Source: a virus
DNA length: 64,000 bases
Strand: one strand, 5' to 3'
IMG/VR virus record: IMGVR_UViG_3300027971_000046
Coordinates: 9,080-73,079 of that record
Shown: positions 1,332 to 33,383 of the stretch, piece by piece
Layout: each line of letters starts with the position of its first letter
Numbering within the stretch: position 1 is the first letter of the stretch
The notes under the pieces: generated by a model
What the model was told of the DNA's origin: nothing
What the model saw: only the letters and a program-made list of their open reading frames with translations
The model's database searches: none
Translations under genes and position numbers: made by a program

Positions 1332-2384
1332 TTATTTAGACGATTTAGAGTGGCTGGTCATGTGGGGAGAGTTACCTTTTCCACTCCGCTGAGTCTCGGG
1401 TTCGACCCGTCTTTTTTGAATCACAGCCCGCTTGCGCTCTTTGGGGGTCATTTCACCCACCGTTTCAGGGGTTTTGCTGCTCACCTTGTTGACAGGGCGG
1501 CACTTGGGGTACTTGCCGCTAGAGGTGTCGTGGCGACCACACGGCGGATACTGCCCTGTCTTGGGGTCTTTCTTGCCGCCAATGTCTACCCACTTCTCTT
1601 TGAACCACCGCGCCAAGTCTTCGTCAATCTTGCACGGGGGAGTGGGGAATATTTTATTGTGCTTAGAGAAGCCGCCAGTTTGACCAGGCGTATCAGGTCT
1701 GCGCTTAGTCTTGTCGCTTTCCATGAGACGAACCGCAGCAGCGGAATAGATGCTGCCGTAGTCGATGCCTTCCTTGACACTGGTCTTCATGCCGTGCTGA
1801 ATGTCTTGGAACAGTGCCTTCACATCAGCAGCGTTTGCGCGGCGTGGCATTCCGCTCCTGAAAGTCTTGAAGTCGTTCTCCGCAGCGGCTGCGCGTAGTT
1901 TGGATGCGCTCATGCCTTGCACACCTGTAGCACTCTCGTCCCGCTTGCCTGCAATCACAATATTCAGGCTCTTGAGTTTCAGGCGGTCTTTCCTGCGACT
2001 CGGCTCCATCAATTCCTTGAAGGCTTCGTATTTTTCTTGCCGATCTTCTCCACCAACAATATGCACATGGTCGTAGCCCTTTTCGGCAAGCCAGTACAAC
2101 ATATCAAACGGAGTCTTGATTTGGGGAATGTCCTTGAAGTTTGCGTCAGGAAAGAACCGCTTCAGGTACTTGAACTTCTGACGCGGCGAGAGTGGGTTCT
2201 TCTTGGGATCGTTTGTGCGACTGCTGAACATCGCGTAGTCCGCACCCAAACTCTTTGCCGTACTAACTACCTTATCGACTAGCAGTTGGTGTCCTGAAGT
2301 TGGTGGCTGAAAGCGACCAAAGGCAACCACGATGGATTTGCCCTGGGTCTTGGGTTTCGAAATATCTCTAACCGTTTTTGCCAC
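1332..2384 (-). CDS. cytidylyltransferase-like (HxGH nucleotidyltransferase) with C-terminal LxRWFKEKWVD module
   Basis: AFGRFQPPTSGH, KKNPL, VGGEDR and GMSASKLR motifs of the T4-like phage cytidylyltransferase family. Confidence 0.85.
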   Translation of the reverse strand: MAKTVRDISKPKTQGKSIVVAFGRFQPPTSGHQLLVDKVVSTAKSLGADYAMFSSRTNDPKKNPLSPRQKFKYLKRFFPDANFKDIPQIKTPFDMLYWLAEKGYDHVHIVGGEDRQEKYEAFKELMEPSRRKDRLKLKSLNIVIAGKRDESATGVQGMSASKLRAAAAENDFKTFRSGMPRRANAADVKALFQDIQHGMKTSVKEGIDYGSIYSAAAVRLMESDKTKRRPDTPGQTGGFSKHNKIFPTPPCKIDEDLARWFKEKWVDIGGKKDPKTGQYPPCGRHDTSSGKYPKCRPVNKVSSKTPETVGEMTPKERKRAVIQKRRVEPETQRSGKGNSPHMTSHSKSSK

Positions 2385-2425: not shown

Positions 2426-3631
2426 TCAAGTTTTCTTCCAAGTTTTTTCAACAGTAAAGTTGCTGCGTGAGAAGTCCAATCGGTCTACTAGTTTCACTGC
2501 CTTGTTGCTCATGCGGTCGATTGCCACGAAACCTTCGGGTGTCGTGACGCGATATCCCTTGCCGTCCTTGATGAAGGTCGAAACCTCACCCTCAAGGGAT
2601 GCAAGTTTGTCGCGCACAACCAACTTCAACTGCGCGACAGAGTTATGTAGGGCGAACACCCGACCGATCTGATTACGGTTTTTCCGTATCCATTCCATCG
2701 TGGGTGTTGGCTTTGTGCTTGGTTTCTTCCTGACGAGTGCCGATTTTGATTGCAGGAATGCAATCAATTGATTCACATCAGCGTGTGAACTGGCAATCCC
2801 TTTAGATACAAGAGAGTTGATGTATCCTTTGATAGCCTGTTTCACCCCATCGTTCTTTCCGATGGCGTTGAGTATTGCTTTCAGAGATTCGGCAGTGCGC
2901 GTGAGCGATTGGATTGAGGCTTCAATTGTTCTACGATCCGTTGGGCTGAACAGTGCCGAGCCAGAGGCAACACGAAGTGTGGCGTTGTCGAACCACACAT
3001 CCTTGCTCTTCTTCAAGTACGAGATATCGGGGTTGAACCGCGCACTCATGTCCTGCATGGTGTTGCCTTCGTATGCAGTATGGAACACGATTCCCATCTT
3101 GGCTGCACTCATGCGCTTCGCCAAATCGCTGTTGGCACTCACTGCGTACCTGATGGTGTTTGCTTGGAAAGTGAGATAGGCTTTTCCGTCAATCTTTTCC
3201 CGTTGCAGAGTATCGTGCTTGAACAAGAAGTCTCCTTGCAGCACACCACGCACACCTAGTTTAGACAGGTGCTTCAGAGCGAGTTTCAGTTTTTCGTTTA
3301 GTCCACCCTCGGGGTGGTTTGCGTCTATGTCCGCATCAGTGAAGTTTAACTTGGGTGTCACATTGAACACGCTCTTCGTACCAACGAAGAACTTGCCAGT
3401 TGATGGATCTGTTCCGCAGAATATTGCGGGTGCGCCGTCCCACTTCACGGTGACATCGTATGCGCTTGGTTCGTTTGCGCCCAAAGCGTCCATCAAACCA
3501 GTGATGGACTTCATGCTGCTGACAAAGCCAGAGTATCCGCTGTTCAGCATCTCGTCTTCAAGATGCTCCAAGTGGACATTCTTTCCAGTCTTTTTTACAG
3601 CCTCAACCAGATGTTCCGTGAATCGTATCAA
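2426..3631 (-). CDS. conserved T4-like phage protein (DUF6267-like)
   Basis: KNVHLEHLED, TVKWDGAPAIFCG, FFVGTKSVFN, PEGFVAID, KLVDRLDFS motifs; usual neighbour of the cytidylyltransferase. Confidence 0.8.
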   Translation of the reverse strand: MIRFTEHLVEAVKKTGKNVHLEHLEDEMLNSGYSGFVSSMKSITGLMDALGANEPSAYDVTVKWDGAPAIFCGTDPSTGKFFVGTKSVFNVTPKLNFTDADIDANHPEGGLNEKLKLALKHLSKLGVRGVLQGDFLFKHDTLQREKIDGKAYLTFQANTIRYAVSANSDLAKRMSAAKMGIVFHTAYEGNTMQDMSARFNPDISYLKKSKDVWFDNATLRVASGSALFSPTDRRTIEASIQSLTRTAESLKAILNAIGKNDGVKQAIKGYINSLVSKGIASSHADVNQLIAFLQSKSALVRKKPSTKPTPTMEWIRKNRNQIGRVFALHNSVAQLKLVVRDKLASLEGEVSTFIKDGKGYRVTTPEGFVAIDRMSNKAVKLVDRLDFSRSNFTVEKTWKKT

Positions 3632-3652
3632 AGGCGTCCTCCGCTTCCGTAT

Positions 3653-4321
3653 TTAGGAAACGCGGACGGGCTGCTCGGCGCGATAAGTCTGTATTGCTTC
3701 CACCAAATCAGGAACATAGTCCATTGGATCAGCGGTGAATACCTGACAGCCTCCGTCTTCCACCCCAATCAGAATGGCAATATTTCGCAATTCCTGTCCA
3801 GTGCGATCCTGCCACATAAGGGAATACGCGGTAGCCTGCATGAAGTAATCCTGAATTGCGTCTTCCGACTTCGGGTAATTGGATGACTTGAAGTCAATAA
3901 CGGACGGAACGCCGTCAAACTCCCCGATGCAGTCGGTGCGCCCTGCCAAGCCCACACGCTTCGACCAGAGCGGTACTTCAATGGCGAATATCTTGCCGAT
4001 ACGGTCAATGTCTTCCCGCATGGCGACAAACAGATCCGCCTCACTCGTCCCTGCTGCTTCAGCGAGCGTAGTTGGCGTAAGATCGTTGCGGAGATAGGTT
4101 TCAATGATCGAATGTAGTTTGGTTCCACGGGAAAGTACTCGCTTGGATTCTTCGGGATTGTCGCGCCGCCACTTGGCAAAGAACGCACGCTTTTTCCATC
4201 CCGTCACGGTGGTGACAGACGGAAAAATACCGTCAGGAGTGCTGTATCTCCTGCCTCCGTTGCTTTCTACGCTTTCAATATTTTCTTCAAGCGTCACTAG
4301 TTCATGCTGAAAGGTCTTCAT
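3653..4321 (-). CDS. PD-(D/E)XK exonuclease
   Basis: PSVTTV, RGTKLH, LAGRTDCIGEFDG, VIDFKSS, DYFMQATAY motifs; start moved to MKTFQH. Confidence 0.85.
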   Translation of the reverse strand: MKTFQHELVTLEENIESVESNGGRRYSTPDGIFPSVTTVTGWKKRAFFAKWRRDNPEESKRVLSRGTKLHSIIETYLRNDLTPTTLAEAAGTSEADLFVAMREDIDRIGKIFAIEVPLWSKRVGLAGRTDCIGEFDGVPSVIDFKSSNYPKSEDAIQDYFMQATAYSLMWQDRTGQELRNIAILIGVEDGGCQVFTADPMDYVPDLVEAIQTYRAEQPVRVS

Positions 4322-4535: not shown

Positions 4536-5390
4536 TCAATCTGAAGAATTGCGTTCCAATATTTCGGCGTATTCAGAAATGAATTCCGTACACGCTCCCG
4601 TATATTCCGATGCGGCAGAAGAAAATTGGGTGAATATCTGCTGTGTGAACGGGTGTGCGCTTCCAAGACGAACCACTGCGGGCAACAAGATTGCCGTGGT
4701 GGCTTCCTGAATATACGAGTACTTGGTGTCGAAGCCGTGTTCACACGATTGGCGCAGGGCAAGTACTTGCAATGCTTCGCGGAAGGGCTGTTGCTGTCGC
4801 TCGGTGAGAGATTGCAAGCATTCCGTAGCAGAGCGTATGAGTGCTTCCACACACGCAGCGGATGTACTCTTGATGCTGTAGTCACACTCTTCCTTGATGG
4901 TCAAGAACTCAAAGGGCGTGGTCTTTTTGCGAAGATCGTTCATTACTGCGCGGTATTCGTAGAACTCCATCTCTTCCCCGATCACCTTTACGATATCGGT
5001 GTTGTGCATGGCATACGACAGACTGCAAATGCGATTAAACATTTCGCGGGACGAGAACGCCTCTGCGTACACAGACTGATGAGCATTGCTCCAACACTTG
5101 AACAGCGAATGCACCTTGGGCTTGTAGCGTGTCTCGGTGTGCTTGGCAGTCACACACAGTACCGTAGGAGCGAATCGCTCTGTAAGGCTGTCCACCACCG
5201 CGTTTACGAGTGCAGGATCAGATGCGTCAGATGCCTTGCACCACAGCGAAAGCGTGGACTGCGGGTTGGAATACAGATATGAAATCGAAGCAAGTCCTTG
5301 AGCGGACTTCACTGTAACCGATCCACCACCATCGGTTTGCTCATGTTGAATCATGTTGTTATCTTTTCTTGCTACGCGGACGCAATCCAA
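4536..5390 (-). CDS. hypothetical protein
   Basis: long ORF packed in the minus-strand operon; start uncertain. Confidence 0.6.
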   Translation of the reverse strand: MDCVRVARKDNNMIQHEQTDGGGSVTVKSAQGLASISYLYSNPQSTLSLWCKASDASDPALVNAVVDSLTERFAPTVLCVTAKHTETRYKPKVHSLFKCWSNAHQSVYAEAFSSREMFNRICSLSYAMHNTDIVKVIGEEMEFYEYRAVMNDLRKKTTPFEFLTIKEECDYSIKSTSAACVEALIRSATECLQSLTERQQQPFREALQVLALRQSCEHGFDTKYSYIQEATTAILLPAVVRLGSAHPFTQQIFTQFSSAASEYTGACTEFISEYAEILERNSSD

Positions 5391-5901
5391 ATGTCAAACG
5401 CTTACGCATTGAAAGTTTACGCTTTCGCTTGGCTTGTGATCTCTTGCCACGAGCCTTTCGTGCTGCTCGTTTTGCAGTGAGTTTCATTTTACGCAATTGA
5501 CTCGTAGCCCGCTTCACACAGGTACGCGGTCCTCTTTTCTTGAAGCCAGGAGCGCACTTGAAGATGATGCGCTTGCGTCCCTTGCGAACCACGATCTTGC
5601 GCTTGGCAGCGGCTTCGTTTAGTTCTTCGCCTTGAATGTCAACCGATTCTTCAATCTCTTCTGCGTCATCGTCTTCAATGCTGATCTCGGCTTCTTCCAC
5701 CGCGTCAAGAATGTAGATGACACCATCTTTTTCTTCCCACTCCACCTCGTTCTCGTCAAGGTAGTCTACCACATCTTCATAGGAAAGCGAGGGCATATCC
5801 AAAACAATCTTCTCTTCCGTGAGTTCAGCGTCAAACTCCTCAAAGACAATTCTTTGAAGTGAGCAGAATGCGTGGTCGCGTAGTTCTTTGAATGGCTTCA
5901 T
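5359..5901 (-). CDS. prohead core protein (gp68-like)
   Basis: acidic N-terminal half, very basic C-terminus ending KRKRKLSMRKRLTFGL, as in T4 gp68. Confidence 0.6.
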   Translation of the reverse strand: MKPFKELRDHAFCSLQRIVFEEFDAELTEEKIVLDMPSLSYEDVVDYLDENEVEWEEKDGVIYILDAVEEAEISIEDDDAEEIEESVDIQGEELNEAAAKRKIVVRKGRKRIIFKCAPGFKKRGPRTCVKRATSQLRKMKLTAKRAARKARGKRSQAKRKRKLSMRKRLTFGLRPRSKKR

Positions 5902-8905: not shown

Positions 8906-9384
8906 ACTCCGTAACTGCGCGTGATGGCGGTGATCTTGTCAATCTGTGCAGCAATCTTTTCTGCACGACCTTCCCACTTGATGTACGGCTTTTCGGGATT
9001 CTTCATAAGATTAGTTAGGAGAGGCAGAATCATCCGCTCAAGCGTCTGCAATTTTTCCTTGCACTCGTCCCGTGTGGCGTTAGCCCGTTCTTCCACCTCG
9101 TTCAGCACACTAGACAGGCTTTCGCCTTGCGACTGCACCGCTGCATTCAGTTCGTGCAGTTCCATGTTCAGTACACGATCAATCTTTTCTTCCACTCGTG
9201 TCATCTGTGTGAGGGACACAGGCTTCAGTGCAGCAACAGCATTTTTTAGTTCAGTGATCTGTGCTGCAATGGCTGCAACTGCATCAGGTGAAACAGACGG
9301 AAGGGGAGGAGTTGGTGGTGTCACCACCAGACCCAACTCCTCCCCTGTTACCGCCGTGAAGCCAAAATCAAACTCTTCAGCCAT
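8902..9384 (-). CDS. conserved coiled-coil phage protein
   Basis: FDFGFTAV N-terminus and ILPLLTNLMKNPEKPYIKW C-terminus as seen in T4-like phages. Confidence 0.7.
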   Translation of the reverse strand: MAEEFDFGFTAVTGEELGLVVTPPTPPLPSVSPDAVAAIAAQITELKNAVAALKPVSLTQMTRVEEKIDRVLNMELHELNAAVQSQGESLSSVLNEVEERANATRDECKEKLQTLERMILPLLTNLMKNPEKPYIKWEGRAEKIAAQIDKITAITRSYGV

Positions 9385-10207: not shown

Positions 10208-11020
10208 TCACCGCCACTTGTTGTTGTCTTTGGAACGATTGGTGTGGCGAGACACGAGCCGTATGTTCTTTTTCCCGTTGTTCAGCGCGTTTCCGTCCTT
10301 GTGGTCAATCTCGCGTCCATCGGTGCTTTTTCCTTCGCGTCCCATTTTGCGAAGAATACGCTTGCGCGAAGTTTTCTTCTTCATGGCTTTACGCTGCTTG
10401 GGCGTGGGGTTGTCGCCGCCGTACATCTTGGCGTATTCAGCCTTGTAGTCACGGGCTTCGGGAACCATGCCGCGCAGCGGATTGAGCGGATCTTTCCACT
10501 TCATACCCTTGGGTGGATGGGCAGACGCTTCCACTTTGCTCCACGGTAGCACAGCCAGTTTAGCCGTGGTCACCGTGCGCTTGTTCTGAAGCGGTCCTTG
10601 ACCGCTCACCATGCGATCTGTAATCTCATAACCGTACTGCTTGCCAAACCGCCGCATCATGGCACTGTAAACGGCATCGCGCTTGCCTTCGGATGTCTTG
10701 GACACCATGTCAAACTGTTTGGGCAATTCCTCAAATGTTTCGGTATGCCACTTCAAGAACATCTTTACGGCTTCAATCACCGTTGCCAGTATGCGGTACG
10801 GCTTGCCTGCGTGGGTGAGTTCATGTGAGCCGTCAAGCGTGAAGTTGATTTCCCACCCGTTGTTGATCTTTGTAATATCAATGTTCAGGTACTGACCGTT
10901 TTCGGTCTGTGCTTGATAGGTGACTTCAATGGTTGTCATGCCGTGACCGATCCGCTTCATTTCACGCACAGGAAGCGGACGATCAAACAGTTCAGTGAGA
11001 TAGGAGCGAAATGTGTTCAC
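10208..11020 (-). CDS. capsid-targeting-sequence protein with C-terminal HNH-like domain
   Basis: N-terminus MNTFRSYLTE; C-terminus IDHKDGNALNN...NIRLVSRHTNR. Confidence 0.75.
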   Translation of the reverse strand: MNTFRSYLTELFDRPLPVREMKRIGHGMTTIEVTYQAQTENGQYLNIDITKINNGWEINFTLDGSHELTHAGKPYRILATVIEAVKMFLKWHTETFEELPKQFDMVSKTSEGKRDAVYSAMMRRFGKQYGYEITDRMVSGQGPLQNKRTVTTAKLAVLPWSKVEASAHPPKGMKWKDPLNPLRGMVPEARDYKAEYAKMYGGDNPTPKQRKAMKKKTSRKRILRKMGREGKSTDGREIDHKDGNALNNGKKNIRLVSRHTNRSKDNNKWR

Positions 11021-11763
11021 GCTTTACCTCCCTGATACAACTCACCAAACTTGTGCTGTTTGTCCAACCAAACAATGGTGGGTGCTGCCATGCCCCCACG
11101 CGCAATGTCCAACTCATGCACCGTGCCGCCCACTGCGGCGGCTGCTTTACGCGCAAGTGCTTTGTAGATGCGACCACGCGCAGGATTGGCACTGGTCTTG
11201 GTTCCAATGATGATTCCGCGAACGGGATGGTTGTTCTTGACGAATTCACGCGAAGCGTCCACCACCGCGCCAAGCACAGAAGCAGCACCGCCTGTACTCA
11301 ACCAATTCAGGTCTTCATCTGTGCCGCCGCTATCAAATTTCCAATAGAACTTGCTGATGTCCTTGGGTTTTGAGCCAACTGGGTACGGACGGGGCGGCAT
11401 ACGCTCAAGCGATGTTGCGTGGCGAGAAAACGACAACTCGTAGATGCCGTCAGGCTCCAAGCCGTAGAACAGCAAAAATTCAGGGTATTCGTTTCGGATC
11501 TGCACAAGTGGAGTAAACTCCACCGAGTACACATACACTCTTGCTTTTTTTGTGTAGAACTTGTGCAGGCTGTCAAAGTGATTCTCTGGCGTGACTTCCA
11601 ATTCCTTTTCCACCCACTGCGTGAGTTTGCTTCCACGATCAGGAACAGGTATCAAGCGACCGTCTTTTTCCTGCACATGAAAAATGAATTGATTGTAGCC
11701 CATGCGTTGCAGGGAAAACTTTGTGTCAAACAGTTCGGTGAGATATGAGCGGAAGTCTATCAT
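11017..11763 (-). CDS. capsid-targeting-sequence protein, unknown function
   Basis: N-terminus MIDFRSYLTELFD; partly similar to the 10208 product. Confidence 0.7.
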   Translation of the reverse strand: MIDFRSYLTELFDTKFSLQRMGYNQFIFHVQEKDGRLIPVPDRGSKLTQWVEKELEVTPENHFDSLHKFYTKKARVYVYSVEFTPLVQIRNEYPEFLLFYGLEPDGIYELSFSRHATSLERMPPRPYPVGSKPKDISKFYWKFDSGGTDEDLNWLSTGGAASVLGAVVDASREFVKNNHPVRGIIIGTKTSANPARGRIYKALARKAAAAVGGTVHELDIARGGMAAPTIVWLDKQHKFGELYQGGKA

Positions 11764-12770
11764 ACGGCTTTACGCTTCACCTTTCCGTGCAGTTGACGGG
11801 AGAAAATTTCGGAGCGGTAGTCCACAGCCTTGTCGGAGTATGTGGTGTAGCCGCCCTTTACCCACGAATCAGCGTAGGTCATCTGATTTCCGCCTGTCAT
11901 CTGCGACAACTTCAAATTCGTGACTTCAACGGTGTCACCCAAACGAATGGGCGGCAACCCTTCCTTGCGATCCGCTGTGCCAATGTAGCCCATGAGCATC
12001 CAGCCTTCATCGGTCTGAATGCGAACACGCCATCGCCACACGCTCATCTTGGCATCATACGCTTTCTGACCAGGAGTATCCACATACGGACTCTTCCCAT
12101 CTCGTTCTCCAATGCGGAAGCGCGTGTTCCTGTACTTCTTGGTCTTTACGGGAATATCAAACACAGGATGCAACTGCACAATCTTGCCGCTGATGTTGAA
12201 CGGCTTACGAAAGTACTCGGGTTTGGGCTGCGGTGTGTCGCCTTGTTCCACGCCTTCTTTCACGGTTTTCTTCTGACCAATCCCGTACTTCTTCAAAATT
12301 GCATCTCGCTTGGCTTGCAGTTCTCGCTGCCGTGGTGAAGCGGGCATGGTTTTCAGGATTTTAATTGTCAGGCGATTTGCTTCTTTGCGGTCTTCAGGCG
12401 ACATCACAGCCCACGGATCTTTGAAATCCTTGAAGTCATGTGAGGTTTCATTTTTGACCCACTGCATTACCATAGCCTTGGCTTTCGCTAGTGTATCCAC
12501 GACCTCATCAGGCTGTCCACCTTCACGCACTCTGCGAATGAGATTTGCTTCGGGACCACCATCCTCTTCATACGATGCACCACTGCCATCGTATATGCAG
12601 TATAACTTCTTGCCTATCGGGGCATACCCGCGATACTCGTTGCATTTGGAAATCATGTACTTGCCGTGGCTTGTGATCCATGTGTTTGGACGCTTGCCTT
12701 TCACGATGGTAACCGCAGCAGCCTCTGTGATTTCTACGCGCTCCTGCATGAAATGCGAAAACCCTTTCAT
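11760..12770 (-). CDS. capsid-targeting-sequence protein, unknown function
   Basis: N-terminus MKGFSHFMQE; ATGA overlaps on both sides. Confidence 0.7.
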   Translation of the reverse strand: MKGFSHFMQERVEITEAAAVTIVKGKRPNTWITSHGKYMISKCNEYRGYAPIGKKLYCIYDGSGASYEEDGGPEANLIRRVREGGQPDEVVDTLAKAKAMVMQWVKNETSHDFKDFKDPWAVMSPEDRKEANRLTIKILKTMPASPRQRELQAKRDAILKKYGIGQKKTVKEGVEQGDTPQPKPEYFRKPFNISGKIVQLHPVFDIPVKTKKYRNTRFRIGERDGKSPYVDTPGQKAYDAKMSVWRWRVRIQTDEGWMLMGYIGTADRKEGLPPIRLGDTVEVTNLKLSQMTGGNQMTYADSWVKGGYTTYSDKAVDYRSEIFSRQLHGKVKRKAV

Positions 12771-13336
12771 ATCGCGCCCTCCACATCCATGTCAACCACT
12801 GTGTAGCCAGGGAACATACGCGCCAGATTGTTTGCCACGCGATTCTTGCCGCGTTGAAGCGCACGATCACGCAGCAGATTTTGTCCTGTTGCCGCAGAGA
12901 TAAGCGAAACGGTCTTGCGGAAACGGTCAACGCGACCCTGATAGTCAGGCATACCGCTTCCGTTGGTTGATCGTTCAACCGCACTACGATATTCAGGAAT
13001 ATCGTGGTGTATCACATCAGCGGTTTGGTGTGGCGGAATTTCCCACACTATGATCTTGCCGCCGTCCCACCACCACAACAGCGGCAAGTACTGGCGCAGA
13101 GTCTTGACATCATTGGTTGGCGGCAGTCCCCACTTCTCAAGCCAACGAGCGTTGGGATTGTCGTGACCTGTTGAATCGTAAGCCGCATAGGTCTTGCCGT
13201 CATAGGTGGTTTCAGCACGCAAACGCTGAAGCGTCTTTGCAGCGGTTTTCTTGTAGCCGCGTGGCTTCCGTGCGCCCTTTACGGCTTTGGTCTTGGAGAT
13301 CACGGCTTCGCGTAGATGTTGAGTAAAAGACTTCAT
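12767..13336 (-). CDS. capsid-targeting-sequence protein, unknown function
   Basis: N-terminus MKSFTQHLRE. Confidence 0.7.
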   Translation of the reverse strand: MKSFTQHLREAVISKTKAVKGARKPRGYKKTAAKTLQRLRAETTYDGKTYAAYDSTGHDNPNARWLEKWGLPPTNDVKTLRQYLPLLWWWDGGKIIVWEIPPHQTADVIHHDIPEYRSAVERSTNGSGMPDYQGRVDRFRKTVSLISAATGQNLLRDRALQRGKNRVANNLARMFPGYTVVDMDVEGAI

Positions 13337-13845
13337 GCGATTTTCCTTGCGCGTTTTACTATTTCAGAGTGATCGAATGCAAGTTGAGGCATTTTGTTCA
13401 CGGGAAACCACTCTGCTGCGCTTGCATCATCTGCACCGCGAACCCGTGGATTGAAGCCCTTCGGAAGCGTAACGGTGAACGCATGGGAGCGCGACCACGA
13501 TTCTGCACTGTCGCGTGGATCGCGTCCACCACCCTCGAAAACTCCGATATGCTTTATCATTCGCTGCTGTGCAGGGGTGAGTCGCAGTCCTGTTTCTTCT
13601 TCCAATTCACGAACCGCTGCTTGCAGAGGCGATTCCGCCCCACCCTTCCACTCTTCTCCGCGCTGTGCCGTGGTGTTGATGAAGCCACCAGGGATTGCCC
13701 ACTTGCCGCCTTCCACGCTGCCAGTCTTGCGCTTGATGAGCAGCAGTTCTTTTCCGTTCGCGCCTTCACGAAACACCACAAGATCCACCGTGGGATTTGC
13801 ACCACGAAAAAAGTATTCTGTGATGTGGACGCGAAACGACTTCAC
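13333..13845 (-). CDS. Nudix hydrolase (ADP-ribose pyrophosphatase/NrtR-type) with capsid-targeting N-terminus
   Basis: Nudix box GGF...AAVRELEEETGL, GRDPR, GADDA, LAFDH; GTG start overlapping the upstream TGA gives MKSFRVHITE. Confidence 0.85.
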   Translation of the reverse strand: MKSFRVHITEYFFRGANPTVDLVVFREGANGKELLLIKRKTGSVEGGKWAIPGGFINTTAQRGEEWKGGAESPLQAAVRELEEETGLRLTPAQQRMIKHIGVFEGGGRDPRDSAESWSRSHAFTVTLPKGFNPRVRGADDASAAEWFPVNKMPQLAFDHSEIVKRARKIA

Positions 13846-14567
13846 GATGCGGTTCTCCACTCGTTTGGATTGTACCGCTTGAAATCCGATAGTCCGCGAT
13901 TCAGTCCAACGCGCTCCACCACGACTGTGTTGAAGTTGCCACCGCTCTCGCTGATCTCGCGCAGTGCTGCACGAATGGAGTCGCCGTTGATGCCTTCCAG
14001 TGACGGTGAATTTCGTGCGCTTCCCGAGTACACCTTCAGCCAGCCCTTCATGTACGCAAGCCGCTGCACTTCATACGCCAGATCAATGTCTGTCTTCAGA
14101 ATGCTGTCGCGCACACTTTCGGCTGTGTGTGCCTGTGGAGTGCCTTCGCTGTCGTACCAATTCATGTGGCGCGACACCAAATGCTCTGCTTCCTTCAGCA
14201 GTCCCCCATTCAGTTCTGCGGTGGAGATGCCGAATGCCCGTGGAGTCTTTACAATCTGCGTGACATGGAAGCCACTGGTGAACAGGAACCACTGCTTGGT
14301 GGGATGCCACCAGCCTGGCTTCATGTTGTAGCCGCCACCGCTCCACGGAAACGGCTGACGCGCCGACTGTGTGCGGTGCTGTGCTTGCGACTTTGCAAGA
14401 GCCTTTGCGGCTACCCGTGCCATGACTCCACCGTAAAGCCGTGCTTGCCGCCGCTCGTATGCAATATCTGCACGACTACGCGCTCCACTGGTAGCGGGTG
14501 GCGTGTACGCATTGGGGTTGTCCTCAATGGCGAGGCGTTCGGTAATGTACTGGCGGAATGTCTTCAT
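13842..14567 (-). CDS. capsid-targeting-sequence protein, unknown function
   Basis: N-terminus MKTFRQYITE, 5 nt downstream of CTAAATA. Confidence 0.7.
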   Translation of the reverse strand: MKTFRQYITERLAIEDNPNAYTPPATSGARSRADIAYERRQARLYGGVMARVAAKALAKSQAQHRTQSARQPFPWSGGGYNMKPGWWHPTKQWFLFTSGFHVTQIVKTPRAFGISTAELNGGLLKEAEHLVSRHMNWYDSEGTPQAHTAESVRDSILKTDIDLAYEVQRLAYMKGWLKVYSGSARNSPSLEGINGDSIRAALREISESGGNFNTVVVERVGLNRGLSDFKRYNPNEWRTAS

Positions 14568-14572
14568 ACGGA

Positions 14573-14579
14573 TATTTAG
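14573..14579 (-). promoter_or_regulatory. T4-type late promoter (CTAAATA) for the CTS operon
   Basis: resembles T4 TATAAATA; the same core recurs upstream of many late genes in this window. Confidence 0.65.
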
Positions 14580-14633
14580 ACCCAAAGAAAAACCCCCTTG
14601 CGGGGGTTGATCGTTTGCCAAGGTGGACTGCAT

Positions 14634-15463: not shown

Positions 15464-15748
15464 TCATTGGGGTCCGTACTTCCTACCACGCAGCGATGCA
15501 GCGCGATCCAGATTTTCACGGTAACGCTTGGGTAGACCCGCCCCCATTTTCCGCGTTAATTCTTTGAATTGCGAGCCTGGTCCTGCCGTAGCGTCTGCTC
15601 CCATCACAGGAACGCTGATGCCGCGCTGCACACCACGCTTCTTGCAAGCGGGACACGGCTGCTTGCACGGCAGGTCGCGGTCGTCTATTTTATGAATGGT
15701 TTCGAAAGCGTGGGCGCACTTCGCGCAAGAGTACTCATAGGTGGGCAT
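15464..15748 (-). CDS. FmdB-family zinc-ribbon protein
   Basis: MPTYEYSCAKCAHAFE...PCPAC. Confidence 0.85.
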   Translation of the reverse strand: MPTYEYSCAKCAHAFETIHKIDDRDLPCKQPCPACKKRGVQRGISVPVMGADATAGPGSQFKELTRKMGAGLPKRYRENLDRAASLRGRKYGPQ

Positions 15749-32663: not shown

Positions 32664-33383
32664 AGCCGCTCCTCACGGGGCGGCTTTCTTTTTGGCTTTA
32701 GAACAAGTTGGTCGGTTCACTTCTTTTTTCCCATCACTACCAATCTGATGTTTTCACCAAACTTGTCATTGTATACGATTGAATCGTGCTTGTCTGGATT
32801 GTATTTGTCTATAGTCGCAATTTTGTTCTTTCTTTGTGATGTATCAACTGCGGATACCTGTCTCATCTTTGCCAATGTTGCCCACAATGAACGGGAACCT
32901 GCCGATTGGGTGGGTCCACTTATGACACCACCAAACCTGTCTGCAATCATTCCATAGACCTTTGCAGCCAATCCACTCACCTTTGCGTTTCCGCCACGAT
33001 GGGACGGATGAATGTTTGGTGTGTCCACAGCAACAATACTTCTTCCATTTCGCCTACCACCGTCAACCAATGGAAATACCCCAATCTGTTTCCCCTCATG
33101 GTGTACGGTTACTGTGTCGGCTCCCATATCGTCTTGAATATGATGAACTTCATATGGACCGATATTTCCCAAATGTGCTATATGCTTGGTGTTCGGATCT
33201 GCATTCGGTTTTGTTGAATGCACATATCTGCGAGAAGCCGCCCACGGGCGTTCTACTGGCATCTCCGACAAATATTCAACGAACTGCGAGAAGGACTTCA
33301 TAGATTGCACCTATTCATTTTATGTATACCGATTTTTACTTTCCATTCTTCGTAACCACAGCCGCTCCTCACGGGGCGGCTTT
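32664..33383. repeat. identical 24-bp hairpin direct repeats (32664-32687 and 33360-33383)
   Basis: AGCCGCTCCTCACGGGGCGGCTTT twice, flanking one inverted gene. Confidence 0.85.
32717..33301 (-). CDS. capsid-targeting-sequence protein, GNAT-like fold possible
   Basis: MKSFSQFVEYLSE; HPSHRG...GLAAKVY...ISGPTQSAGSRSLW. Confidence 0.7.
   Translation of the reverse strand: MKSFSQFVEYLSEMPVERPWAASRRYVHSTKPNADPNTKHIAHLGNIGPYEVHHIQDDMGADTVTVHHEGKQIGVFPLVDGGRRNGRSIVAVDTPNIHPSHRGGNAKVSGLAAKVYGMIADRFGGVISGPTQSAGSRSLWATLAKMRQVSAVDTSQRKNKIATIDKYNPDKHDSIVYNDKFGENIRLVVMGKKK

Follow-up and report, generated by a model that had tools for sequence, protein, structure and literature searches.

A leader-tagged cassette array resembling the T4 internal-protein loci in an uncultured Kyanoviridae-like freshwater myovirus

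Introduction

The internal proteins (IPs) found in T-even phages are diverse defence proteins among which only a capsid-targeting sequence (CTS) is conserved, and the loading of diverse proteins by such a sequence is already published for these phages (Rao and Black 2010, PMC3012670; likewise PMC9026906). The propeptides of the T4 IPs are 10-19 residues long; in the case of IPIII the first 10 residues are enough for packaging, residues 4 and 7 being the main ones for targeting and residues 8 and 10 those for processing (PMC9026906). In the T4 genome record (NC_000866) IPII and IPIII begin with MKTYQEFIAE, and IPI with MKTFKEF...ITE. Here we describe a 64-kb stretch of viral DNA (positions 9,080 to 73,079 of the IMG/VR record IMGVR_UViG_3300027971_000046; henceforth the window), in which six consecutive minus-strand open reading frames (ORFs), g1 to g6 (14567-10208), encode proteins that share a short N-terminal leader resembling the T4 CTS. 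In our view the array is probably a locus for internal proteins of the T4 type, carried by a freshwater myovirus of a distant, Kyanoviridae-like lineage. An earlier note on this DNA had proposed that the six genes form an expandable array of head-packaged effectors.

The array resembles the T-even IP loci in several respects. Both consist of genes whose predicted mature products are unrelated to each other and mostly basic, and both vary in content; the array genes are, by their promoter motif, putatively late like the IP genes, and relatives that carry the array encode a gp21-type protease. The T4 propeptides begin with MKT[F/Y]; like the leaders of the array, they are aromatic at positions 4 and 7 and have I/L-x-E at their end. 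Unlike the T4 IPs, the six array genes are joined by stop/start overlaps into one operon with one promoter, and their predicted cargo is larger (17.6-37 kDa); some of it is recognisable as enzymes, and some consists of several modules assembled on a common carrier domain. The lineage is also distant from T4, with a baseplate protein 37-39% identical to those of Melnitz, the pelagimyophages and the cyanomyophages. The likeness to the T4 IPs is at the level of the leader sequence; similarity of the bodies to T4 IPs was neither seen nor searched for. A further parallel is provided by the ejection proteins of the giant phages phiKZ and SPN3US, which reside inside the head and possess N-terminal propeptides cut after a Glu by a gp21-related protease and conserved N-termini among paralogues (PMC5694885). 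However, those propeptides mostly exceed 100 residues and carry an A/S-x-E motif, whereas the leader of the array spans about 10 residues and ends in I/L/M-x-E.

Results

A common leader with the functional positions of the T4 capsid-targeting sequence

All six array proteins begin with the 10-residue pattern M-x-x-F-x-x-[Y/H/F]-[I/L/M]-x-E. When this pattern was run as a regular expression at all start codons of the 73-kb genome, it returned 8 matches: 7 ORFs of 170-401 amino acids (aa) and one ORF of 15 aa. The seven longer ORFs are the six genes of the array and a separate, predicted late gene coding for a DUF6267 protein, so that outside the array only this one gene appears to bear the tag. 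A genome scan of this kind had been suggested in the earlier note. F4, Y/H/F7, I/L/M8 and E10 are present in seven of the seven tagged window proteins, and these are the same four positions that were mapped as functional in the CTS of T4 IPIII (PMC9026906). Together with the leaders of the T4 record and the gp21-type protease of relatives, this computationally supports the proposal that the leader is a T4-type CTS. A crude collection of 99 ORFs, 23,037 residues in all, contains the core F-x-x-[YHF]-[ILM]-x-E six times: four times at residue 4 and once each at residues 10 and 97.

As a positive control, a degenerate DNA version of the pattern was tried on T4, where it recovers ipII, ipIII and gene 61.1. 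The product of the last is a hypothetical 54-aa ORF adjoining the primase gene (NC_000866, 18966-19130), with the N-terminus MKTFKEFIKE, a near-perfect CTS; it is a caveat to taking the motif as a mark of packaging.

The codons of the leaders are 31% identical at third positions and 58% identical at positions 1 and 2, a pattern that points to conservation and selection at the level of the peptide. On this basis we rejected an element for nucleotide-level recombination or initiation as the main origin of the shared N-terminus. The same result speaks against a more general alternative, namely that the leader is an N-terminal module with no relation to head targeting, such as an initiation or coupling signal or a tag for a cytoplasmic complex, and that the proteins are ordinary intracellular late proteins. 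So does the fact that the conserved positions are the ones mapped as functional in T4, as well as the occurrence of the leader on genes such as that of DUF6267, which overlaps no other gene and has its own promoter and Shine-Dalgarno sequence. The latter alternative is taken up again below.

Beyond the leader, the proteins are unrelated, as the earlier note had noticed for most of them: all-against-all blastp comparisons find only the leaders, a 21-aa common N-terminus of g5 and g6, and a weak match between g4 and g6 (E 0.001). Alignment of the g5 and g6 families with hhalign covers only the first ~55 residues. These observations bear on a third possibility, that the six genes are tandem paralogues diverged past recognition with the N-terminus as their sole remnant. 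While the tandem arrangement and the longer N-terminus common to g5 and g6 (21 aa, or ~55 aligned columns) are in its favour, g2, a member of the Nudix superfamily, has numerous close homologues without the leader, and the DUF6267 family occurs both with and without it. We accordingly rejected descent from tandem paralogues as the main origin of the shared N-terminus, and regard it as very improbable.

A possible eighth tagged protein is a lone 194-aa ORF (32717-33301, minus strand) that begins with MKSFSQFVEYLSE; it may carry a leader variant with three extra residues before L-S-E. This ORF has no upstream CTAAATA and no family match.

A T4-type head module in relatives that carry the array

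The window is 64 kb out of a 73-kb viral contig with a G+C content of 51% and a completeness class of 33%. Its assignment to the T4-like myoviruses rests on matches to PHROG baseplate and tail families (tail tube cap, wedge subunits, hub/lysozyme) with E values of 4e-48 to 9e-154. Searches by tblastn with its gp6-like protein place OM43 phage Melnitz, the pelagimyophages and the cyanomyophages, all Kyanoviridae, as the nearest named phages, at an identity of just 35-39%. Near-identical array DNA is present in many freshwater metagenome runs, and megablast of the array DNA against the phage collection gave no match.

The 73-kb fragment itself yielded 0 matches to head genes, prohead protease and scaffold included. 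We therefore examined two relatives carrying the same array: G001 (150 kb, 83% complete, with a g1 97% identical to that of the window) and G002 (113 kb). Each of them has a gene for a prohead protease of the gp21 type, a member of the Peptidase_S77 family (PF03420; E 5e-42 and 1.7e-40). In G001 the PHROG matches further comprise portal (phrog_213, 1e-205), protease (phrog_207, 5e-84), scaffold (phrog_237, 5e-63) and major capsid protein (phrog_138, 2e-141), and the genes stand in the T4 order: sheath, tube, portal, two small core-like ORFs, protease, acidic scaffold and major capsid protein. The DNA-pattern scan of G001 found 8 matches, comprising the six array genes, the DUF6267 gene and one 20-aa ORF (0 and 1 in the reversed-pattern control); in G002 it likewise found 8, of which 7 are real and one has a stop at codon 2 (control 0).

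Tagged enzymes in the virion proteomes of related cyanophages

The same leader pattern was run on related cyanophage genomes. In S-CREM2 it has 7 matches, 4 of which lie at the starts of coding sequences (CDS), namely ORF6 (an S-adenosylmethionine (SAM) hydrolase), ORF14 (an APH-like kinase), ORF136 and ORF154 (a cytidylyltransferase); the other 3 are not gene starts. Table 3 of PMC10665884, with its 52 virion proteins, includes all four tagged CDS; the chance of this is ~0.003, assuming that ~52 of 219 CDS were detected. This outcome in S-CREM2 is a further point against the idea that the leader is unrelated to head targeting. The authors of that proteome describe ORF6, ORF14 and ORF154 as 'non-structural' and consider contamination possible (PMC10665884).

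In S-SCSM1, where virion status was taken from the 'virion protein' labels of the GenBank record, ORF91 (NMNAT) begins with MKSFLQFLKE and is a virion protein according to both paper and record; ORF30 (106 aa) is tagged and has no such label, and another match is antisense. The cytidylyltransferase S-SZBM1_140 has a leader shorter by one residue (MRFRQFIIE) and is in the proteome, while the names of the tagged S-SZBM1_191 (105 aa) and S-SZBM1_192 (165 aa) are absent from the proteome paper. In S-CRM01 the leader is found on the kinase g130 (MISFDQFLSE), the cytidyltransferase g127, the acetyltransferase g185 and g33; virions of this phage are reported to contain a Ser/Thr kinase (PMC10665884), which we link to g130 by combining that statement with the GenBank annotation. 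Thus, five of the eight tagged cyanophage proteins checked, S-SZBM1_140 included, are virion-reported. The three misses are small proteins, two of them from the shallowest proteome (30 proteins).

These misses are in favour of a tag that has nothing to do with heads, and the proteome authors do allow that enzymes may be contaminants of CsCl preparations (PMC10665884, PMC9602691). The other facts on that side are the short T4 gp61.1 ORF by the primase gene with the same N-terminus and the other genes of the window phage that start with MK[P/T]F. In addition to the points already given, it is countered by the g1 family, in which the length of the leader varies while the phi-x-E boundary is kept (see below). 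On balance, we judge an N-terminal module without a targeting role to be unlikely and prefer the reading of the leader as a head-targeting sequence.

These cyanophages belong to the same broad phage family as the window phage and share with it the leader and the neighbourhood of DUF6267 and cytidylyltransferase genes; however, their tagged genes are scattered or in small groups, unlike the array. In phage C48C1 the forward pattern matches 6 times and the control 0 times; five of the matches are spread over ~11 kb around the DUF6267 gene. The pattern has no match in Mosig and none that looks real in S-PM2, where both matches contain stop codons or are at control level. In the literature searched, a limited collection, we found no link between a targeting sequence and the virion enzymes of cyanophages or Kyanoviridae, the sole paper to name both capsid targeting and cyanophages being the T4 review, in which the latter word occurs in the title of a reference; the word 'internal' does not appear in PMC10665884, and the available parts of the cyanophage proteome papers neither connect the enzymes to a targeting sequence nor mention processing of N-termini.

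Two side observations concern the same proteins. The NMNAT-like cytidylyltransferase of the window (1332-2384, minus strand), which has a DUF5872 at its C-terminus, is untagged, while its counterparts in S-CREM2, S-SCSM1, S-SZBM1 and S-CRM01 are tagged, and the first three of these are virion-associated. In the window phage the leader is carried instead by the Nudix hydrolase, a protein similar to the remaining half of the bifunctional NadM-Nudix enzymes. Further, S-CREM2 ORF12 (a 'Cas9-like' nuclease detected in virions) and its neighbour homologue S-CRM01 g128 (L082, L079) have a leader-like F/L-x-x-F-[MI]-x-E after ~16-20 extra residues, and their sequences suggest a longer class of propeptide.

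Gene organisation and promoters

The six genes form one unit behind a hairpin and a single CTAAATA (Table 1), and no second copy of this motif is present inside the array. The junctions from g1 to g6 read GTGA, ATGA, ATGA, ATGA and GTGA. The promoter, the overlaps and the six N-termini are as the earlier note had reported them, with V or M as the first residue of g2 and g6. CTAAATA is the published late-promoter consensus of phage Aeh1, in which it is positioned at -12 to -6 (PMC1524935). The window contains 11 copies against 2.8 expected, a number reached in 0 of 100 shuffles, and both leader-tagged units, the array and the DUF6267 gene, are preceded by one. The gene downstream of the array (10119-9391) has a separate CTAAATA.

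Table 1. Features of the leader-tagged units in the window
Feature	Position	Strand	Description
g1	13842..14567	-	241 aa; leader MKTFRQYITE + 231-aa basic cargo, no family
g2	13333..13845	-	170 aa; leader (V/M)KSFRVHITE + Nudix hydrolase
g3	12767..13336	-	189 aa; leader MKSFTQHLRE + 179-aa basic cargo, no family
g4	11760..12770	-	336 aa; leader MKGFSHFMQE + two-module cargo
g5	11017..11763	-	248 aa; leader MIDFRSYLTE(LFD) + 238-aa cargo, no family
g6	10208..11020	-	270 aa; leader (V/M)NTFRSYLTE(LFD) + ~150-aa N-domain + C-terminal HNH module
DUF6267 gene (seventh leader carrier)	2426..3631	-	leader (L/M)IRFTEHLVE + 391-aa predicted mature part; outside the array
Terminator-like hairpin	14591..14608	-	7 pairs, 5 of them G-C, then a T-run; closes the upstream unit
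CTAAATA late-promoter motif, array	14573..14579	-	5 nucleotides before the g1 ATG
CTAAATA motif, DUF6267 gene	3650..3656	-	18 nucleotides before the gene

The other late genes of the window phage have 18-37 nucleotides between CTAAATA and the start codon, and a Shine-Dalgarno sequence. Given the -12 to -6 position of the Aeh1 consensus, the 5-nucleotide spacer of the array would place the first base of the g1 transcript at the A of the AUG, implying a leaderless late mRNA. The module of hairpin, CTAAATA, 5 nucleotides and ATG is also found in three relatives, L003, L004 and L009. In all four loci the motif lies exactly 5 nucleotides before the first start codon of the unit (window 14567-14579, minus strand; L003 ~5195-5207; L004 ~5779-5791; L009 ~519-531); the spacers vary (tccgt, agtgc, tggag), and the hairpin precedes the motif every time.

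Upstream of the array the window encodes an FmdB-type zinc-ribbon protein (15464-15748, minus strand; PF09723, E 1.7e-11). A gene of this type is also present upstream of the arrays of the distant relatives L006 and L018.

Predicted cargo of the tagged proteins

The predicted mature parts of all seven tagged proteins are basic, with isoelectric points (pI) of 9.2-10.1; the array cargo measures 17.6-37 kDa and that of the DUF6267 protein 43 kDa. The earlier note had assigned a Nudix hydrolase, an HNH-containing protein and four proteins of no family to the array. The Nudix assignment of g2 stands (PF00293, E 1.2e-17, 64.6 bits against a cut-off of 21.1), and its catalytic core, E-x7-REUxEExGU, is intact at residues 71-87: ESPLQAAVRELEEETGL. 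The PDB matches of g2 include the ADP-ribose pyrophosphatases 2qjo and 1q33. Against the NCBIfam NadM-Nudix family only the Nudix half matches (E 4e-16), and since the match is limited to that half the best score, 58.9 bits, is far below the cut-off of 449. By sequence, g2 most closely resembles the ADP-ribose pyrophosphatase half of the NadM-Nudix enzymes and the NUDT9-type proteins, with a score below the family cut-off.

Although g6 displays the HNH motif DH..GN...N...N, the score of its C-terminus against HNH_3 (PF13392), 21.5 bits, is under the Pfam cut-off of 24.8; its orthologues in L003 and L004 pass with 33.2 and 25.6 bits. For g1, g3, g4 and g5 no match was found in Pfam, PHROGs or NCBIfam, as had been proposed. 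Pfam searches at E values up to 10 gave nothing further for these four or for the DUF6267 protein, and no usable match came from the ESM Atlas, whether for g1 (scores <=0.77) or for g4 (TM <=0.33).

The DUF6267 protein matches PF19782 over the entire profile (1-376 of 376; E 2.9e-103, 346.5 bits), the match beginning at residue 18, past the leader. Its invariant motifs VKWDGAPA (KxDG), PEGFVAI and AVK.VDR recall, as we take it, the covalent nucleotidyltransferases (ligases, capping enzymes). However, neither a PDB search with the DUF6267 profile nor Pfam at E values up to 10 gave a ligase match, and PDB searches with the sequences of this protein and of g4 gave nothing significant. Should the DUF6267 protein be a ligase, it would be notable as a head-packaged RNA or DNA repair enzyme. 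We found no papers on DUF6267 in the limited collection of literature searched.

These assignments bear on an alternative that accepts targeting of the tagged proteins to the prohead core but takes most of the six for core, scaffold or DNA-condensing structural proteins instead of effectors acting on the host. T4 IPII and IPIII are often regarded as structural. In line with a structural role, all mature parts are basic, four of the six cannot be placed in any enzyme family, and g1 and g3 are conserved throughout the clade like structural genes. Nevertheless, the catalytic core of the g2 Nudix domain is intact, the HNH motif is kept in g6 and its orthologues, and tagged proteins of relatives are enzymes (SAM hydrolase, kinase, NMNAT). 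Moreover, the gain, loss and shuffling of cargo between close relatives, described below, is the behaviour of accessory and not of essential structural genes. Finally, T4 IPIII itself acts in the host cytoplasm (PMC9391042). We hence think it rather improbable that most of the six are structural, and retain the reading of the array as an internal-protein locus whose cargo may act in the host.

Gain, loss and fusion of cassettes among relatives

We compared the array with the loci of its relatives in IMG/VR. Its position, upstream of a gene coding for a 242-aa anchor protein, is kept, and each locus has 4-7 leader genes whose content varies; hence the word 'expandable' in the earlier proposal is apt. 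The locus is a cassette array in which relatives keep the position and the leaders and gain, lose, fuse and swap the cargo modules. Its most widely conserved cargo is g1. The leaders of the g1 family are 10, 13 or 17 aa long, and in 56 of 70 homologues phi-x-E abuts the conserved RL.I..NP core; the retention of this boundary in spite of the varying length is expected of a cleavage site, better than of an initiation signal. Orthologues of g3 with 54-91% identity are found in 10 of the relative loci, with the leader in every locus scanned. In contrast to these two, the Nudix cassette is restricted, among the arrays of relatives, to the window and G001.

The remaining genes show modular rearrangement. 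The C-terminal module of g4 (~150 aa) occurs as a standalone protein behind a leader of its own (174-175 aa) in L014 and L074. In the g6 family, relatives have the leader and the ~150-aa domain either alone (154-170 aa) or followed by the HNH tail (239-272 aa); the G001 variant of 451 aa contains an extra insert resembling HAD/Pnk phosphatases (phrog_415, E 1.8e-12), and in L004 a g6-type protein is fused to the C-terminal module of g4 (408 aa). Among the 120 homologues listed for the g6 N-domain, 115 have the leader at residue 1, with lengths of 156-455 aa and differing C-terminal modules. In its workings, and with no claim of membership, this family is akin to polymorphic toxins and effectors, in that a constant leader and ~150-aa domain precede exchangeable C-terminal modules. 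It differs from them in that delivery would be by ejection from the head and not by a secretion system, and no immunity genes were seen.

Conversely, among the 120 Nudix homologues listed, the leader is found in a minority (P0001-3, P0012-14, P0016, P0023), the rest beginning at the Nudix core. The leader of DUF6267 proteins is present in the window clade, Melnitz and C48C1 and absent from S-PM2, S-CRM01 and S-SZBM1. Given that both families occur with and without it, the leader has been joined to unrelated bodies. Several other Nudix homologues (P0021, P0022, P0024, P0027, P0007-P0009, P0017) have different conserved N-terminal extensions (MKSKDQ.LLE.AYE.., M.WYK.A...), which may be other kinds of leader.

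Contigs from three freshwater runs belonging to different studies diverge from the window at 13823, within the g2 leader, into one common alternative sequence in which, read as its reverse complement, both the start of the leader and the upstream neighbour are different ones. Further contig ends are found near the starts of g5 and g6 (11716, 11011, 10977). These short contigs, from four DNA runs and with strain variants among them, hint at cassette junctions located at the leaders.

Discussion

Several observations weigh against the interpretation of the array as an internal-protein locus. The phage is uncultured and represented by a metagenomic fragment of 33% completeness, which has no head genes of its own. 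T4 gp61.1 bears the same leader on a 54-aa ORF by the primase gene, and the motif by itself thus does not prove packaging. Since several other genes of the window phage begin with MK[P/T]F, the motif may in part stem from a general N-terminal preference. The leader logo of the relatives was drawn from ORFs selected by the regular expression and is therefore circular at positions 4, 7, 8 and 10. The argument from basic pI is weak, as values above 9 are also found in 6 of 13 family-annotated window genes and in half of the crude ORF set. Among the strict-pattern matches at CDS starts that were checked in the cyanophages, 3 of 7 are not virion-reported (S-SZBM1_191, S-SZBM1_192, S-SCSM1_30), in a count that leaves out 1 match of S-SZBM1 and 3 of S-SCSM1. 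Lastly, the promoter of the array is merely 5 nucleotides from the g1 ATG, which is atypical among the late genes of this phage (18-37 nucleotides).

Taking these points into account, we still regard an internal-protein locus as the probable nature of the array and propose the following course of events. Late in infection, to go by the promoter motif, the six genes would be transcribed from the CTAAATA promoter. The anatomy of the unit suggests that the message of g1 would start at or next to its AUG and that g2 to g6 would be translated by coupling through the GTGA/ATGA overlaps. By analogy with the mutational map of T4 IPIII, the aromatic residues 4 and 7 of the ~10-residue leader would dock on the scaffolding core of the prohead. 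A gp21-type prohead protease, the gene of which is present in the two relatives, would then cut after the invariant Glu of [I/L/M]-x-E, and the basic mature proteins of 17.6-37 kDa, along with the 43-kDa DUF6267 protein, would remain in the head with the DNA. As in T4, they might be ejected with it into the next host and act ahead of phage gene expression. The cargo so delivered would comprise a Nudix hydrolase of the ADP-ribose pyrophosphatase type, an HNH nuclease module borne by a carrier domain, and another four or five modules without a family. Roles in counter-defence or host takeover are hypotheses, for which the 'likely' of the earlier note is an apt wording.

We are evenly divided on whether the leader is a general, portable head-loading signal across the Kyanoviridae-like relatives of T4, both freshwater and marine, whether their hosts are cyanobacteria, OM43 or others. 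Were this the case, injected proteins could be read from sequence, and an extensive set of ready-made enzymes that enter with the DNA, for the most part unexplored, would come into view, examples of which are the ADP-ribose-type Nudix hydrolase, the SAM hydrolase, protein or small-molecule kinases, NMNAT, the acetyltransferase, the ligase-like DUF6267 protein and HNH nucleases. Such a signal would likewise decide whether the 'non-structural' enzymes in cyanophage virion proteomes are real cargo, giving a testable mechanistic account of proteins that their discoverers could not separate from contamination. In the clade of the window phage, the g6 family would represent a polymorphic effector, with a carrier domain and exchangeable C-terminal enzyme modules.

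Head-packaged proteins are the first phage products to face host defences, and outside the T-even phages they are known mainly as scattered proteome hits. A tag that predicts packaging would make it possible to catalogue the injected proteins of T4-like phages that are uncultured, an abundant group in lakes and oceans. Candidates for cargo directed against defence systems or host metabolism are the Nudix hydrolase of the ADP-ribose type, the HNH modules, the DUF6267 protein and the four families without an assignment. The tag could, in addition, be used to load foreign proteins into the heads of T4 relatives that are not coliphages, as the T4 CTS does in T4.

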